From IMG/VR virus record IMGVR_UViG_2698536341_000008: a stretch of 7,411 nucleotides of DNA; one strand, 5' to 3'. Origin of the DNA: a virus. Its lineage: Duplodnaviria; Heunggongvirae; Uroviricota; Caudoviricetes. Position numbers and translations under genes: made by a program. Within the stretch, counting starts at the first letter, position 1; every line of letters begins with the position of its first letter. Below are positions 1-7,154 of this stretch, piece after piece. Under the pieces are notes generated by a model. The model did not search any database and had not been told where the DNA came from. It worked only from the letters and a program-made list of their open reading frames with translations.

Positions 1-251
1 CCCCGTCAGTAGCTGAACAGGAGGGACAGCTGATAGAAACAGAAGCCACTGGAGCACCTCAAAAACACCATCATACACTAAATCAGTAAGTTGGCAGCAT
101 CACCGCTACATTCAATAGAATTCTGGACGGTTTTGATATCTCTGATGAAGTTACGCCAAAGAACCTTAAATTTAAAAATAAATATTGCGTATCATCTATT
201 GATGATGAGTAAACAACAGGAATTGTTTCGGTATAACTTCTGGAGTTTTCT

Positions 252-425
252 ATGGAAGATCAAAAAGCAACCAAGCCACAGGTTAAGTTCGACACAATGA
301 AAGCATTCATAGGTATGGGTGCTGCTGTTGAAGTTCTGATGAAGGCTGCTCCTAATGCGTTCACTCACGCTACTGTCTCTGGTAAAGAGCAGCAGGGTAA
401 GCTTCGTCGTCGCAAAGCAGCATGA
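252..425 (+). CDS. Small hypothetical protein, 57 aa (MEDQKATKPQVKFDTMKAFIGMGAAVEVLMKAAPNAFTHATVSGKEQQGKLRRRKAA); absent from the ORF track
   Basis: ATG at 252 preceded by GGAG (242-245) with a 6-nt spacer; strong G-first codon periodicity; stop at 423-425 followed 20 nt later by a strong intrinsic terminator. Alternative internal start ATG 297 (42 aa). Function unknown. Confidence 0.35.
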   Translation: MEDQKATKPQVKFDTMKAFIGMGAAVEVLMKAAPNAFTHATVSGKEQQGKLRRRKAA

Positions 426-444
426 TCATAGCTGGTGCTTTTTG

Positions 445-471
445 AAAACCCGCCTTTAGGCGGGTTTTTTC
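445..471. terminator. Bidirectional rho-independent terminator between convergent genes
   Basis: GC stem CCCGCC (449-454) / GGCGGG (459-464) with loop TTTA, extended by A-run 445-448 and T-run 465-470. The T6 tract serves the plus strand; the A-run gives a shorter U-tract on the minus strand. It sits between the stop of the + small gene (425) and the stop of the - gene (473). Confidence 0.7.
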
Positions 472-472
472 T

Positions 473-754
473 TTAGTGATGTTCTTTGCCCTTCTGTTTG
501 CCTGTTCTGACCTGTTCCCACTCGATACGTCCTTCTTCTCGTCTTTTGTCTATGTATTCCGCAAGATCCTGAATATTGATGCAACGTTTTGCTTTTTGTG
601 ATGTGCCGATGCGATATGTTGGAACGGGCAACTTACAAGCGTTTGCTTTTGCTTCTGCTGTGGCTGGACTCATACCAAAGTACTTTTGGCTAACTGCTGA
701 GAGTTCAATGTTTGAGGTATTGAATTCAGCCATCAGTAAAAACAAGGTGTTCAT
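473..754 (-). CDS. Excisionase-like (Xis/RDF-type) small DNA-binding protein, about 93 aa; start uncertain, ORF track extends to 829 with a TTG start
   Basis: Segment SQKYFGMSPATAEAKANACKLPVPTYRIGTSQKAKRCINIQDLAEYIDKRRE follows the pattern I recall for small winged-helix excisionases (Tn916 Xis-like layout). Preferred start ATG 754 has GGAGAA 5-6 nt upstream; the 829 start would overlap the upstream gene by 35 nt. Last gene of the leftward operon, followed by a terminator. Family assignment is from memory, not a search. Confidence 0.45.
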   Translation of the reverse strand: MNTLFLLMAEFNTSNIELSAVSQKYFGMSPATAEAKANACKLPVPTYRIGTSQKAKRCINIQDLAEYIDKRREEGRIEWEQVRTGKQKGKEHH

Positions 755-794
755 AAATTTCTCCATTATCCCGGCTGCACCCGAGGGTAATATA

Positions 795-1661
795 TTAATT
801 AATAGCATCTTTGCTCTGAAGTACAGCAAATGCCATTAATACCTCTAAAGTATATCGTCTATAAAACTTAACGAATCCAACATAAAAAACATAGACGAAG
901 AAAAAGCTAAGTAGCGTCGAAATAGAAATATAAGACACCGCCCCACCTTCTATAGCACGATAAATTAATGTTAGAAATGATATCCAAAATGTAATTACAA
1001 ATACTAAACAAATATTTCTGCAAAAACCATATAATGCAACATAGTTTTGAATTTTTGTTTGATGTTGATTAGAAAATTCATAGACGTAATGATAAGCCAA
1101 TCTGAAAAGATCATCATGAAGACCTGTCCTGATGTTTAATAATTTATCGTCTATTCTGAATTTTTTTTCATAACCTTCTTTGATCATTAGCCATGTGGTA
1201 TTAGCTAATTGAAATGGCAATGATTGTGAATAACATAGTTTTTGAGTGGCGTAATCCCATGGTATTATCGGGAATAACATTACTTTGATTATGCAGTATT
1301 TTATTTTTCTCTTTGTGTCTTCGTTCTGTTTGTCACTTGATGGTGTTAAGACGTTTTTTTTGTCATCTGATAACTTATTAAATAGATATTCTGACGGATA
1401 TTGCAATTCTTCGTTCATATATTTTTCAATAAAAAATGCGGATGTGATAGATATAAAGTGTCCAGCTATGTAAGATATGATTACTATTGAACCATAGTTC
1501 AAAATGCCAAAGATTTGACTTTGACCTCTGAGCAATTCAGTTAAGTCAATAACAATATCTAGATCGAATGTCAAACCACAGAAATACATTAATAGGATAA
1601 AAAAACCACCTGGTATTAAATATCCAAGAAAGTCATAGAATGAGAATGGATTTTGATTCAT
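795..1661 (-). CDS. Integral membrane protein of unknown function (about 288 aa, two N-terminal and two C-terminal hydrophobic helices flanking a ~140-aa soluble domain); AT-rich moron
   Basis: Long minus-strand ORF. ATG at 1661 with GGAGAG 5 nt upstream (track start 1685 is TTG). Four hydrophobic segments, e.g. FLGYLIPGGFFILLMYFCGL, IFGILNYGSIVIISYIAGHFISITSAFFI, LYGFCRNICLVFVITFWISFLTLIY, ISISTLLSFFFVYVFYVGFV. GC content roughly 25-30% versus about 50% in flanking genes. Confidence 0.7.
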   Translation of the reverse strand: MNQNPFSFYDFLGYLIPGGFFILLMYFCGLTFDLDIVIDLTELLRGQSQIFGILNYGSIVIISYIAGHFISITSAFFIEKYMNEELQYPSEYLFNKLSDDKKNVLTPSSDKQNEDTKRKIKYCIIKVMLFPIIPWDYATQKLCYSQSLPFQLANTTWLMIKEGYEKKFRIDDKLLNIRTGLHDDLFRLAYHYVYEFSNQHQTKIQNYVALYGFCRNICLVFVITFWISFLTLIYRAIEGGAVSYISISTLLSFFFVYVFYVGFVKFYRRYTLEVLMAFAVLQSKDAIN

Positions 1662-1769
1662 TGTTGCTCTCCAATAATTTTTCAATTTGTAATATAACCT
1701 ATATCTATATGTTAATAAATTACTTATATGTTCTTTTATGGCAGAGTTTGAATTCGTACGTGCTGATTT

Positions 1770-2294
1770 TTACGACTCAGTTAACTCTTTAAAGCGTTCC
1801 ATAAACATCCCATAGGCATGGCCTGGCGACAGTGGAATAACTTTGAACATCTCTGTTGCCGGGATACCTTCCAGTACAGGCCAGAAAGAGCCATCATCAA
1901 GCCCGAGATCGCGGCGTTCGGTTGCCAGCATGATGAGATCGGCATATTTCACAGGCGTGCTCATAACCGTGGGTAACCCGTATTTCTCACGGATTACGGC
2001 GTCTATTTTTTCTTCCATCCGTTTATAGTCAGGAAGAAGACGTTTCAGCGGCGTGGGGATGTCCTGGCAATACGCTTCTGTTGCATCATGCATTAACGCT
2101 TCAAAAGCAAATTCCTGCGGCACCAGCTGGCTGCAAAGCACCGCATGTTGGGCGACACTGTAGAAGTGTGAAAGATGACCGGCAAAGCGACAGATATTTG
2201 AAAGGGAAACCGCGATATCGTTAATCACGATGTCGTCTTTATTTATCCTGTCATAATAAAAATGCTTCCCGGAAAAAGTTTTAATAAATGACAT
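1770..2294 (-). CDS. HD-domain phosphohydrolase, YfdR-like 5'-deoxynucleotidase family (prophage-encoded)
   Basis: HD signature ...FEALMHDATEAY... plus upstream His-containing motif (RFAGHLSHFYSVAQHAV). ATG 2294 (MSFIKTF...) has GGAG 6 nt upstream; track start 2324 is GTG, 10 codons further up. Family recalled from memory. Confidence 0.7.
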   Translation of the reverse strand: MSFIKTFSGKHFYYDRINKDDIVINDIAVSLSNICRFAGHLSHFYSVAQHAVLCSQLVPQEFAFEALMHDATEAYCQDIPTPLKRLLPDYKRMEEKIDAVIREKYGLPTVMSTPVKYADLIMLATERRDLGLDDGSFWPVLEGIPATEMFKVIPLSPGHAYGMFMERFKELTES

Positions 2295-3674: not shown

Positions 3675-3722
3675 TTTGCTGCTCCTCATCATATCGACCC
3701 TGCAAGGTCGGTTGGTTTCTCC

Positions 3723-3811
3723 ACAAAACAGAGAAGAACACCTGCGGTGGCAGCCGCCCGGATGGATTGGGTTATGAGCCCGTCGGCCGGTGATGCTCTT
3801 CTCTGTTTTGT
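3723..3811. repeat. 15-bp perfect inverted repeat (ACAAAACAGAGAAGA ... TCTTCTCTGTTTTGT) forming a long stem with a 59-nt structured loop
   Basis: Read directly: 3723-3737 is the exact reverse complement of 3797-3811. Lies immediately downstream (minus-strand sense) of the leader terminator U-tract and about 35 nt upstream of the RBS of the 120-aa gene. Confidence 0.8.
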
Positions 3812-3857
3812 AAAAAGAGCGGTACCAGCCGGAAGCAAGTGTACAAACTGGTACCGC
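3811..3857 (-). terminator. Candidate intrinsic terminator inside the early-left leader (10-bp GC-rich stem GCGGTACCAG/CTGGTACCGC followed by UCUUUUUA on the minus strand)
   Basis: Perfect 10-bp inverted repeat 3819-3828 / 3848-3857 with a 19-nt loop; plus-strand A-run 3811-3818 gives the U-tract on the minus-strand transcript. The loop is longer than in typical terminators, so efficiency is uncertain. Confidence 0.5.
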
Positions 3858-4288
3858 CAAAGCAGTGGCTGTTGTGGTGACCGGTGCTGATCTCCGGCTT
3901 GCGGTTATTTCAGACTCTCACGGGCGTTTAATTGCCCCGCCGAACAGCTCTTTTCCGCAATAGCTGCAATGTCTTTCGCGCATCAGCCTGCGCATTCACC
4001 ACAACGCTGAGAGCACTTAGCCAGTTACGGCACCACACTTTGTCGCGGTTCCATAAATGCCCTCATCGTTGCACCCTGGTCTCTTCCCAGGTGTCAAACC
4101 GAACCGCCACGCTGGTTAGGCGTCTTATCAGCATCATCATTGACTTGCACATTCCGGCTACCTGGTTTGTTTGCTCGAGCAAGGAGTGGATTGTCCCCTT
4201 TAACGTCCCCAGACCGCTAACGACGCATGTGCCATACGCCGTGTTACAACCAAATTTTGTTAGTACCTTGTTTGTTTGTCTGGAAAGA

Positions 4289-4341
4289 AAGATAAAATGA
4301 AGTTGCGCATTATGCAAGTGTTTTTATTGCGAGATATGCAA
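4289..4341 (-). promoter_or_regulatory. pL-like early-left promoter with two operator-like 15-bp sites (OL)
   Basis: Two copies of TTGCG-N5-(A/T)GCAA-type imperfect palindromes at 4303-4317 (TTGCGCATTATGCAA) and 4327-4341 (TTGCGAGATATGCAA), matching a site in the cI-cro intergenic region (5110-5124). On the minus strand: -35 TTGCAT (4312-4317), 17-nt spacer, -10 TATCTT (4289-4294). Confidence 0.45.
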
Positions 4342-4354
4342 TTTAAAGGGTAAT

Positions 4355-4376
4355 GAAAAGCCACCTTTGGGTGGCT
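4355..4376 (-). terminator. Intrinsic terminator downstream of the repressor gene
   Basis: Stem AGCCACC (4359-4365) / GGTGGCT (4370-4376), loop of 4 nt, followed on the minus strand by UUUUC (plus A-run 4355-4358); 20 nt past the repressor stop codon. Confidence 0.6.
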
Positions 4377-4396
4377 AATTGATGAGGAGGTAAGGG

Positions 4397-5447: not shown

Positions 5448-5997
5448 TCATAACTGGAAAGTGGAAAAACAGCCTGAGTGGTACGTGAAAGCTGTCAGAA
5501 AAACTATCGCGGCGTTGCCGGAGGGTTACGCTGAAGCTGCTGAGTGGCTGGATGTAACAGAGAACGCATTATTTAACCGCCTTCGTGCCGATGGCGATCA
5601 GATTTTCCCGCTGGGATGGGCAATGATTTTACAACGTGCTGGTGGCACTCACTTCATTGCTGACGCTGTGGCGCAGTCTGCAAATGGCGTCTTTGTGTCT
5701 CTTCCTGACGTCGAGGATGTGGACAATGCCGATATTAACCAGCGTTTACTGGAAGTCATTGAACAGATCGGCAGTTATTCAAAACAGATTCGTTCAGCAA
5801 TCGAAGACGGTGTAGTGGAACCGCATGAGAAGACAGCAATTAACGACGAACTGTATCTTTCAATTTCGAAGCTCCAGGAGCATGCAGCACTGGTCTACAA
5901 AATCTTCTGCGCTCCAGAAAATAGTAACGCCCGCGAGTGTGCAGCTCCGGGCGTCGTGGCGTCGATTGCTTCTGGTTGTGGAGAAACTAACGCATGA
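5440..5997 (+). CDS. CII-position regulatory protein (185 aa) with HTH-like segment; function inferred from position only
   Basis: GTG start 5440 preceded by AGGAGG (5428-5433) with a 6-nt spacer; translationally coupled to cro upstream and to the next gene downstream (ATGA overlap at 5994-5997). HTH-like stretch AEAAEWLDVTENALFNRL. Family not confidently recognised. Confidence 0.6.
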   Translation: MGNHNWKVEKQPEWYVKAVRKTIAALPEGYAEAAEWLDVTENALFNRLRADGDQIFPLGWAMILQRAGGTHFIADAVAQSANGVFVSLPDVEDVDNADINQRLLEVIEQIGSYSKQIRSAIEDGVVEPHEKTAINDELYLSISKLQEHAALVYKIFCAPENSNARECAAPGVVASIASGCGETNA

Positions 5998-7154
5998 ATA
6001 GTTTAACGGCAAATAACCGTTTGTCGCAACAGCTGGTGGTCAGCGTCGCTGAACACCTGTTGTTACGGCATGAATGCAGATTACCAAATCACCTGGCTGT
6101 AAGTAACCACAGAGAACTTTACCTGACTGTGGGGGGCGAGTTGTGCAGGAACTTAACCGCTGGTTTCGTGACGGAAGAGGGCTTTATGTCCATGTTATTC
6201 GTTGGGAGCCAGAAACACAGCGCGTTATCTATCTTCGCAAAGACTACCCGCATGAGTGCTTTAGTCCTTTGTGGAAATTCAGGCGTGATTTTGTTGAGTG
6301 TGAAGGACCACCAGCATATTGATTCTGCAATTCCGGGACGTTACACTGCTCAGGCACCTTATAAAGCGGGTGCCGGGATTGGCGTCCTGAAATTGTCAAC
6401 GGCGATGTATGACGCGCCAGCGTCTTTTTTATCGTCCGCATTTGCTCACATCCAGATTATGGTGGGCTGGGCGGGGGCACCGAAAGGTGCGCCGGTCTCC
6501 GTTGACGCCGGTTACGCCAACCCCGTCCAGTTCACCACCAGTGAAATTGGCGTTTCCGGTGGTGGAAGTTTTTCACTGTCAACGGAGGCTGCCATCATGG
6601 CTACGATCCCAGCCCTCACTCAACCTGAAATCACCATTGACAACGGCCAGGCCGTTACCACTTCTTTGGCTGTTGCCAACTTCTTCTCCAAGCGTCACGA
6701 CGATGTGCTGAAAAAGATCCGCACTCTGGATTGTTCCCCAGAGTTTTGTGCCCGCAATTTTGCGGAGACATCGATTTCGGTAAATCAACCGAACGGTGGT
6801 ACACGCAAGCTCCCTTGCTATCAAATCACACGAGACGGTTTTGCGTTTCTTGCTATGGGTTTCACGGGTAAACGTGCTGCCCGGTTCAAAGAGGCATACA
6901 TAAATGCCTTTAACCAGATGGAGAAACAGCTTTCAAAGCCCGCTGTACCGAGCGACGTTGCACATAACGCCAGCGTTCTCTGTTCCTACATTTCATCAAT
7001 TCATCAGGTCTGGCTGCAGCAGCTTTATCCTATGTTGGCAAAAGCCGAATCTCCGCTGGCTGTTAGCTTATATGACTATATTAATGATGCTTCGGCGCTG
7101 GCCTGTCTCATAAATTTGTCGCTGAACCCTTCAGAGGTAAGGGGGCGCAAATGA
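5994..7154 (+). CDS. Rha-family phage regulatory protein (Rha domain in residues ~202-310) with an unusual ~200-aa N-terminal extension; alternative start at ATG 6597 would give a 186-aa Rha-only protein
   Basis: Rha signature as I recall it: TQPEITIDNGQAVTTSLAVANFFSKRHDDVLKKIRTLDCSPEF...YQITRDGFAFLAMGFTGKRAARFKEAYINAFNQME. ATG 5994 overlaps the upstream stop (ATGA). Frame 0 stays open with strong G-first periodicity over 6323-6596. A near-perfect internal RBS (GGAGG 6584-6588, 8-nt spacer) precedes Met-202 exactly at the Rha domain start. Confidence 0.6.
   Translation: MNSLTANNRLSQQLVVSVAEHLLLRHECRLPNHLAVSNHRELYLTVGGELCRNLTAGFVTEEGFMSMLFVGSQKHSALSIFAKTTRMSALVLCGNSGVILLSVKDHQHIDSAIPGRYTAQAPYKAGAGIGVLKLSTAMYDAPASFLSSAFAHIQIMVGWAGAPKGAPVSVDAGYANPVQFTTSEIGVSGGGSFSLSTEAAIMATIPALTQPEITIDNGQAVTTSLAVANFFSKRHDDVLKKIRTLDCSPEFCARNFAETSISVNQPNGGTRKLPCYQITRDGFAFLAMGFTGKRAARFKEAYINAFNQMEKQLSKPAVPSDVAHNASVLCSYISSIHQVWLQQLYPMLAKAESPLAVSLYDYINDASALACLINLSLNPSEVRGRK

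Follow-up and report, generated by a model that had tools for sequence, protein, structure and literature searches.

Positions 795–1661 of a 7,411-nt stretch of Caudoviricetes DNA (IMG/VR virus record IMGVR_UViG_2698536341_000008), hereafter the window, encode a membrane protein that travels among phages and bacterial genomes as solitary cargo. The gene is genuine and under purifying selection. It occupies the final position in the leftward early operon of the prophage, just upstream of the excisionase gene (xis), and moves horizontally as a single-gene module of ~0.9–1.0 kb. Its product is modeled as an all-helical inner-membrane protein with four transmembrane (TM) helices, whose termini and ~125-residue helical domain are predicted to be cytoplasmic. 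By profile similarity, the family is a distant sister of Csx27, at the superfamily level only, and not Csx27 itself. We tentatively read the protein as anti-phage cargo that benefits the lysogen or the element carrying it and acts at the inner membrane, an assignment to which we give somewhat less than an even chance. Feature coordinates are collected in Table 1.

The gene had been proposed in an initial annotation made from the letters alone, and the call stands. Counted from a TTG, the full minus-strand open reading frame (ORF) covers 795–1685. All homologues begin M-N/T/S-Q-N-P-F, matching the ATG at 1661, and a good Shine–Dalgarno element precedes that codon. Because homologue starts and GGAGAG both point to this ATG, we take the gene to be 795–1661, 288 amino acids (aa). 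The ORF has a GC content of 0.300, compared with 0.468 for the remaining window; at third codon positions (GC3) the value is 0.26, versus 0.41–0.52 for the adjoining genes. The block of low GC extends from about 790 to 1780. The annotation had estimated 25–30% GC in a region of about 50%, close to the 30% and 47% measured. At the ORF's own composition, the probability of 288 stop-free codons is ~4e-11. Relative to two alleles, the ratio of nonsynonymous to synonymous substitution rates (dN/dS) is 0.17–0.23 overall and falls to 0.02–0.09 in the conserved motifs.

Comparisons with related prophages delimit the module. The yfdR–yfdQ backbone is present in 3029 of 5426 complete Escherichia coli genomes, and similarity ends at the yfdR stop codon. 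The 795–1661 gene occurs in 205 of the same 5426 (24 at ≥99% identity, 181 with an allele of 80–90%). In relatives from O157:H7 EC4115 and enterotoxigenic E. coli (ETEC) H10407, with breakpoints at 783 and 1775, the slot contains instead a yfdS-like gene, hypothetical genes and a 3'-5' exonuclease, and yfdS overlaps yfdR where the window has an AT-rich spacer. The CPS-53 prophage of K-12 holds yfdS and yfdT there, as the initial annotation had suggested. These two genes lie, like ours, between yfdR and the excisionase gene; they differ in being small, soluble and of normal GC, with yfdS translationally coupled to yfdR, and they are unrelated to the window gene. A Salmonella prophage with a different backbone, ordered cI, 47-aa ORF, gene, xis, int and devoid of yfdPQR, shares only the ORF with its ribosome-binding site and 43 bp downstream (Table 1); more than 1000 Salmonella contigs carry the gene. 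In ~50 lambdoid IMG/VR contigs, which between them carry five or more distinct xis/int pairs, the gene invariably comes just before xis(-int), while its upstream neighbor varies (yfdR, cI or a ParB-like gene). The position before xis is also kept in Enterobacter prophages and in Klebsiella phage P7641. Atypical composition is thus joined to presence or absence among otherwise homologous phages. The proposals that this is a separately acquired moron, and that it lies between an HD-domain gene and an excisionase-like gene, are well supported by the breakpoints, the genome counts, the other phage backbones and the identities of the two neighbors.

The family extends far beyond these phages. Neither Pfam nor NCBIfam has a model for it. 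PHROG 12528 aligns end to end and is labeled 'unknown function', and the database names of members are all 'hypothetical protein'. The literature library, queried with its accessions, UniProt id and PHROG number, returned no paper that mentions them. Searching 1.84 billion cluster representatives with a profile yielded 960 clusters (clusters at 50% identity) at E ≤ 1e-3, of which 493 reach E ≤ 1e-10; almost all are full-length matches of 270–300 aa. A scan of one genome per species recovered Gammaproteobacteria, Betaproteobacteria, Deltaproteobacteria, Bacteroidota, Firmicutes, Acidobacteria, Chloroflexi, Gemmatimonadota and others, the Firmicutes being joined by an Acholeplasmataceae metagenome-assembled genome. 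Most members are chromosomal and non-phage. In 75 of 76 loci across phyla, the GC content of the member is below that of its flanks (mean –0.10, lowest –0.28 in a Pseudomonas), versus +0.006 for control ORFs (p ~7e-31). BLASTP clustering of the ±4 neighbors in 78 genome loci from different species revealed no conserved neighbor. The family thus consists of a solitary, horizontally moving gene.

Three further observations concern its carriers. The upstream neighbor runs in the same direction as the gene in 66 of 71 loci, the downstream neighbor in 55 of 74 (L008–L087 of our locus set), though neighbors are never homologous; the family gene tends to insert into, or end, co-directional gene runs. 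A 77%-identical homologue lies at 13509–14372 of NZ_CP148393.1, a 44.6-kb non-mobilizable E. coli 'plasmid' record that is possibly a phage-plasmid or an excised prophage. A 37%-identical homologue resides on a 599-kb Vibrio replicon.

A small phage protein with several TM helices calls to mind a holin-like protein or a lysis regulator. Yet the gene is next to xis, at the opposite prophage end from the lysis cassette, and at 288 aa with a large cytoplasmic domain the protein is unlike holins. We looked for the homology to lysis functions that the initial annotation had named as evidence against its own proposal, and found no holin, spanin or antiholin match in Pfam, PHROGs or NCBIfam. Together with the mostly chromosomal, non-phage distribution of the family, these results effectively exclude a lysis function.

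Among the contexts in which relatives occur is the hotspot between gpQ and gpA of P2-like phages. A homologue there aligns with the window protein over its full length at 44% identity (BLASTP 4e-66) and shares its motifs and its four TM helices. Together with a DUF4760 protein it constitutes System #3, found 1102 times in the P2-like prophages of E. coli (Rousset et al. 2022, PMC9122126, Table S5B). This is the third most frequent content of the hotspot, and several hotspot systems have been validated as defense (PMC9122126). In P2-like phages, a 165-aa single-TM DUF4760 protein always precedes the homologue (6464–6961 in L102/L103; also L156–L162). We sought DUF4760 in the window and in all loci examined, and found it only in P2-like phages; the protein has no PADLOC match. 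It may be a partner or a separate hitch-hiking cargo gene. System #3 thus resembles the window case in being phage cargo in a variable slot, with a true homologue as its second protein. It differs in its DUF4760 partner and its gpQ–gpA location, whereas the window gene has no DUF4760 and adjoins xis.

Other relatives reside on other mobile platforms. One member, at 7001–7867 of locus L096, is an integron cassette flanked by attC-like copies at 6959–6978 and 7872–7891. The surrounding region (5500–14867) is a chromosomal integron array, assigned as such from its attC-type repeats and ORF order: a repeat ending GGCGTTA(G/T) recurs in 11 copies between small co-directional ORFs, whose products include NADAR, RraB, NTP_transf_6, acetyltransferases and unknowns. 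Integron cassettes are reported to encode phage defense (10.1101/2024.07.02.601719; PMC12614218). Another member directly follows the S subunit gene of a type I restriction–modification (R-M) system, and others are beside a C5 methylase, mad3/mad5, PIN_8, an integrase or a transposase. One is carried by an integrative element that also bears Halo_RE, NYN, WYL, AAA and Dcm/Vsr genes. When the ±1 neighbors were scanned in bulk against Pfam and PADLOC, the picture was heterogeneous overall, with no dominant family.

Features of the protein itself bear on how it might work. Hydropathy and an AlphaFold model placed TM1 to TM4 at residues ~10–31, ~55–79, ~207–238 and ~243–266. The model (mean predicted local distance difference test score, pLDDT, 87.6; predicted template modeling score, pTM, 0.86) has helices at 6–31, 52–86, 198–238 and 243–287 plus an intervening helical domain, and it had no fold relatives in the two structure libraries searched, one of solved and one of viral predicted structures. 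The initial annotation had four TM helices around a soluble domain of ~140 aa; the helix count was right, and the domain is shorter, ~125 aa, and helical. Across 127 sequences at ~30% pairwise identity, 35 positions are invariant. Positive-inside statistics for these members gave net charges of +5.9 for the central domain, +1.9 for the C-terminal tail and –1.7 for loop 1. On the basis of these family charge statistics, both termini and the central domain are placed in the cytoplasm, which would put essentially all of the conserved polar residues at the cytoplasmic face of the membrane. A polar stripe in TM2 (H68-S71-S75-E79) leads to that face. In the central domain a YPS motif (88–90) is conserved, and just before TM3 lies the conserved motif DxFRxxYHYxxExxxxHxxKxQNY (184–207), which runs on as VALYGFxR into the helix. 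Variation is concentrated in loop 1, residues ~95–182 and the periplasmic end of the TM3–TM4 hairpin; the last of these (residues ~217–255, dN/dS 0.5–0.86) is the least constrained part of the protein.

The initial annotation recognized no family for this protein. That holds for Pfam and NCBIfam models, and PHROG 12528 carries no function, but a distant match to Csx27 is reproducible. The PADLOC Csx27 model PDLC01605 matches the window protein at E 1.8e-5 across TM1–TM4. All 19 close members match it as well, as do 58 of 70 diverse ones (best E 2.2e-10, profile positions 4–193 of 206), and a sister PADLOC model, 'tm_4', matches 16 of the 70. Three unrelated AT-rich multi-TM proteins from phage hotspots gave no match to the Csx27 model, and the RexB-like one among them was correctly recognized by the RexB model. 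Because these multi-TM controls were negative, the signal does not stem from a general TM bias. Csx27, a membrane protein accessory to type VI-B1 CRISPR-Cas (Smargon et al. 2017) with a wider four-TM family around it (Makarova et al. 2019), has, like the window protein, four predicted TM helices. Its profile, though, spans ~200 aa, compared with 288 aa here, and skips a helical insertion of ~90–100 aa between TM2 and TM3. Whereas Csx27 adjoins cas13b and a CRISPR array, the window and the strain E2 locus hold prophage genes only, and members of our family stand alone in prophages, integrons and islets. Cas13b and the DprA/ComF, ubiquitin-like and WYL neighbors of the wider Csx27 family were sought in the 78 loci and in a Pfam census of neighbors; none recurs, and one locus has a WYL gene 7 kb from the family member.

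Among 5027 PADLOC models, the only matches were Csx27/tm_4 and a weak one to PDC-M48A, with none to RexB, Csx28, KwaA, ZorA/B or PycTM. PDC-M48A is a pair, Lactamase_B plus a 162-aa four-TM protein, listed as P2-hotspot system #34 (Rousset 2022, Table S5B); the 162-aa protein is recognized by the PADLOC model PDC-M48A at E 9.5e-51. Its N-terminal motif (YNIFNNLFPGALF versus YDFLGYLIPGGFF) and its TM2 motif (G-x-x-x-S...E) resemble those of the window family. An hhalign comparison gave E 9e-4 but a probability of 23%, over the first half only, and 4 of 70 family members match weakly. PDC-M48A lacks the central domain, is paired with a metallo-beta-lactamase-fold protein, and is itself an unvalidated candidate. 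From this marginal resemblance one may suspect a wider superfamily of small four-TM proteins in hotspots. Three other hits were set aside as chance: SieB (PF14163; 18.8 bits versus a cut-off of 26, E 1.3e-3, one 55-residue stretch in 1 of 19 members), the NCBIfam 'daptide intramembrane metalloprotease' (E 0.022, 13.9 bits versus a cut-off of 300) and growth hormones in the PDB (E 0.03–1.2).

The Csx27 link raises the idea that the family inherited a nucleic-acid-related membrane function, as a DNA or RNA channel or regulator, or as a damper of host defense in the way that Csx27 damps Cas13b. Csx27 represses Cas13b interference in E. coli (10.1101/092577), and the wider Csx27 family is predicted, according to summaries of Makarova et al. 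2019 in PMC7642515 and PMC11662929, to form ssDNA or membrane channels tied to transformation and DNA-modification genes. The reproducible profile similarity is consistent with this idea, and several members have DNA methylase, type I R-M or MADS genes as neighbors. Yet the similarity is remote (E 1e-5 to 1e-10), the family has an extra domain, and cas13b, DprA/ComF, ubiquitin-like and WYL genes do not recur as partners. Repression of Cas13b is inapplicable without Cas13b, and the ssDNA channel is itself only a prediction. We consider such an inherited function very improbable.

An anti-phage role, by abortive infection (Abi) or exclusion, as the initial annotation had suggested, is plausible and gains circumstantial support from the genomic contexts and the distant Csx27 homology. 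We favor it because the gene keeps company with validated defense hotspots and mobile cargo platforms, because it needs no partner, and because a polar site at the inner leaflet is conserved across phyla while the rest varies, a pattern that fits a universal target. The most likely design would be a one-protein sensor–effector. In such a design, the variable cytoplasmic domain would sense an infection cue, and the conserved TM bundle would be the effector, built from the TM2 polar stripe and invariant charged residues arranged as a ring at the inner leaflet (D10, E79, H191, E195, H200, K203, R215, K265 and E273). Once triggered, the effector might perturb the membrane, through an ion or proton leak or by acting on lipids or DNA at the site of entry, and the outcome would be abortive infection or exclusion.

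Classical superinfection exclusion makes a different prediction: a constitutive block of phage genome entry at the injection machinery or a host channel, with no cell killing. Analogues would be SieA of P22, Imm of T4, gp15 of HK97 and, by place of action, SNIPE. An inner-membrane protein encoded beside the immunity/integration region of temperate phages would suit this, and the least constrained parts, the periplasmic TM3–TM4 end and loop 1, are where an injection apparatus would touch. The cross-phylum conservation, in contrast, is at the cytoplasmic face, with invariant His, Asp, Glu, Lys and Arg residues, and suits a universal biochemical activity better than the recognition of a single phage's ejection proteins. 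Nor is there similarity to the SieA, SieB, Imm or gp15 families, beyond the sub-threshold SieB match in one of 19 members. SNIPE/PD-lambda-1 (Saxton et al. 2026, PMC13190303) is a precedent for defense at the inner-membrane injection site: a single-gene inner-membrane system with cytoplasmic functional domains that acts where DNA enters. We considered it in view of the invariant membrane His/Asp/Glu residues and rejected it as a relative, since the architecture is unrelated and the SNIPE domains are absent from the window protein; the likeness is a mechanistic precedent only. RexB, SieB of lambda and P22, and SieA of P22 are likewise multi-TM inner-membrane proteins of temperate phages encoded near the immunity/early-left region, and RexB has four TM helices, as the window protein does. 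They are possible functional analogues. They show no sequence relationship to the window protein, which is larger, has a conserved cytoplasmic domain and needs no RexA-like partner. Pure injection-blocking exclusion fits the conservation pattern less well than a sensor–effector, and we regard it as improbable.

Several results weigh against an anti-phage role of any kind. Neither the System #3 pair nor the window protein is among the systems cloned in PMC9122126, and a literature search by accession found no experimental record of a phenotype for the gene or the family. Csx27 itself is no demonstrated pore or effector, and its mechanism is given as unknown (PMC13288109). Many members have ordinary neighborhoods: one follows fabA–fabB in a setting of amino-acid biosynthesis genes, another forms an islet beside a urease operon and another is beside an FAA hydrolase. 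About 10% of immediate neighbors are polysaccharide-synthesis enzymes (GT1, GT2, WecG, epimerase, dehydratase), and known defense models match only a handful of 145 immediate neighbors. No region has a dN/dS above 1 in the comparison with two alleles, so positive selection is unsupported. Finally, scans of the window found no convincing promoter belonging to the gene and no terminator between it and xis. The spacer has a weak sigma-70-like site (–35 TTATTA at 1713–1718, –10 TATATT at 1691–1696; 8 of 12 matches), and upstream regions of seven homologues share no conserved promoter, those in other phages being unrelated. Since the gene thus has no convincing promoter or terminator of its own, transcription in this phage may come solely from pL after induction, which would leave the lysogen unprotected.

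This transcriptional arrangement is at the heart of another explanation, in which the protein would serve the phage itself as an early function made from a pL-type transcript, acting in host takeover, membrane remodeling or the control of division or replication, and functionally replacing yfdS/yfdT. The gene is co-directional with yfdP–yfdQ–yfdR and with xis, has no strong promoter or terminator of its own and ends 40 nt short of xis, and it stands in place of yfdS/yfdT. PMC4776307 reports that yfdQ–yfdR–yfdS–yfdT, when overexpressed, inhibit the initiation of chromosomal replication and that YfdR binds DnaA; the slot thus belongs to a host-directed early module. What this account leaves unexplained is the non-phage majority of the family: an integron cassette, chromosomal islets and R-M operons make no sense for a phage early function. 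Moreover, P2-like phages carry the homologue in an accessory hotspot, away from early genes. In the Salmonella phage the gene follows cI, and in lambda rexAB holds just this position next to cI. We consider an early function unlikely, yet it is a serious rival in this phage.

The polysaccharide-type neighbors bring up envelope modification, whether as lysogenic conversion or as a membrane enzyme acting on inner-leaflet lipids or polysaccharide precursors, with effects on serotype, receptor or stress tolerance. Serotype-conversion genes (gtrABC, oac) classically adjoin int/xis in temperate enterobacterial phages, and O-antigen genes typically have low GC. The member after fabA–fabB would fit, and the many invariant polar residues at the membrane–cytoplasm interface look enzyme-like. 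But the protein resembles neither GtrA/B/C, Acyl_transf_3, Wzy/Wzx, PAP2 and the CDP-alcohol transferases nor any other enzyme family in Pfam or NCBIfam, and in none of 19 members did Pfam or NCBIfam return GtrA/B/C or the Oac acyltransferase-3. No enzymatic partner is conserved, and most contexts are not polysaccharide loci. Members also span very different envelope types, from the Acholeplasmataceae genome to Firmicutes. An envelope-modifying role is therefore decidedly improbable.

Table 1. Features of the 795–1661 gene, its product and its surroundings in the window
Feature	Position	Strand	Remarks
CDS, 288 aa, four-TM inner-membrane protein	795..1661	minus	RefSeq WP_001075213.1 'hypothetical protein'; PHROG 12528
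Shine–Dalgarno GGAGAG	1667..1672	minus	5 nt 5' of ATG; read directly from sequence
TM1 (aa 10–31), preceded by invariant N-terminal motif NPFSxYDFLGYxxPG (aa 4–18)	1569..1634	minus	
TM2 (aa 55–79), invariant Y64, G67, H68, S74, E79	1425..1499	minus	
Cytoplasmic helical domain (aa 80–206)	1044..1424	minus	net charge +5.9, consistent with cytoplasmic location
TM3–TM4 long helical hairpin (aa 207–266), invariant G212, R215, W226	864..1043	minus	
Cytoplasmic C-terminal helix extension, conserved FxKFYRRxxLExLMA (aa 263–277)	798..863	minus	
Swapped module	784..1774		homology of O157 EC4115 and ETEC H10407 relatives runs up to 783 and again from 1775 (BLASTN)
Segment in common with Salmonella prophage	752..1674		86% nt identity; ORF, ribosome-binding site and 43 bp downstream
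AT-rich 113-bp spacer, yfdR stop to start codon	1662..1774	minus	
yfdR, HD-domain 5'-deoxynucleotidase, upstream neighbor	1770..2294	minus	
Excisionase, PrtN family (PF11112; phrog_1300)	473..754	minus	40 nt downstream of gene
GC-rich hairpin, A and T runs on either side, bidirectional terminator-like	444..469		end of leftward operon

Elsewhere in the window, the left end of the prophage has further features. In the collinear prophage of ETEC H10407, a CoiA-like gene is inserted exactly at the terminator-like hairpin (window 443–452; L007 705–1739), so that cargo has a second slot here, at the left end of the prophage; the CoiA-like gene has no PADLOC match. In strain E2, the prophage end adjoins a dusA fragment and carries three genes on the opposite strand, one with a Panacea domain and two small and hypothetical (window 1–425; L001 7072–8631). 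The E2 lineage has no integrase beside the PrtN-type xis, whereas the N53, Salmonella and Enterobacter versions have xis–int.

Farther right, the window encodes YfdQ, YfdP, a cI-type S24 repressor, cro, cII and a Rha-type gene. Between yfdP and the repressor gene, an interval of ~0.7 kb (~3680–4396, GC 0.53–0.55) has no RefSeq gene annotated and contains ORFs at 3932–4300 (plus) and 4063–4317 (minus); it presumably holds the leftward operator and promoter. Rfam detected isrK sRNA (62 bits) and C4 antisense RNA (81 bits) at 6354–6430 and 6455–6542 on the plus strand, inside ORF 5994–7154. This ORF (386 aa) is a 'Rha family phage regulatory protein' in RefSeq, and its Pfam Phage_ASH match (aa 117–212) overlaps the RNA genes. 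The 5' half of the ORF is probably a c4/isrK antirepressor-control leader of the P1/P7 type rather than coding sequence.

Membrane-bound exclusion or Abi cargo is a known kind of prophage gene. The family described here appears to be undescribed save for one catalogue line on its P2 homologue, the 2019 survey of the Csx27 family being represented in this comparison by summaries of it. The gene is nonetheless common, occurring in its lambdoid form in ~4% of complete E. coli genomes. If it is not a defense gene, it still ranks among the commoner prophage cargo genes of Enterobacteriaceae that lack an explanation. If it does act in defense or exclusion, a single gene would make up a compact membrane system, one that gives a handle on the mechanism of Csx27-type proteins. 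A broader proposal is that the family comprises pan-bacterial, single-gene, membrane-embedded immune effectors of a fold unseen among solved or viral predicted structures, with a conserved catalytic or gating site at the inner leaflet, forming a free-living sister group of Csx27. We find this rather doubtful; if true, it would define a new stand-alone defense mechanism in prophages, P2 hotspots and integrons, and it would explain the role of Csx27 in type VI-B CRISPR systems.

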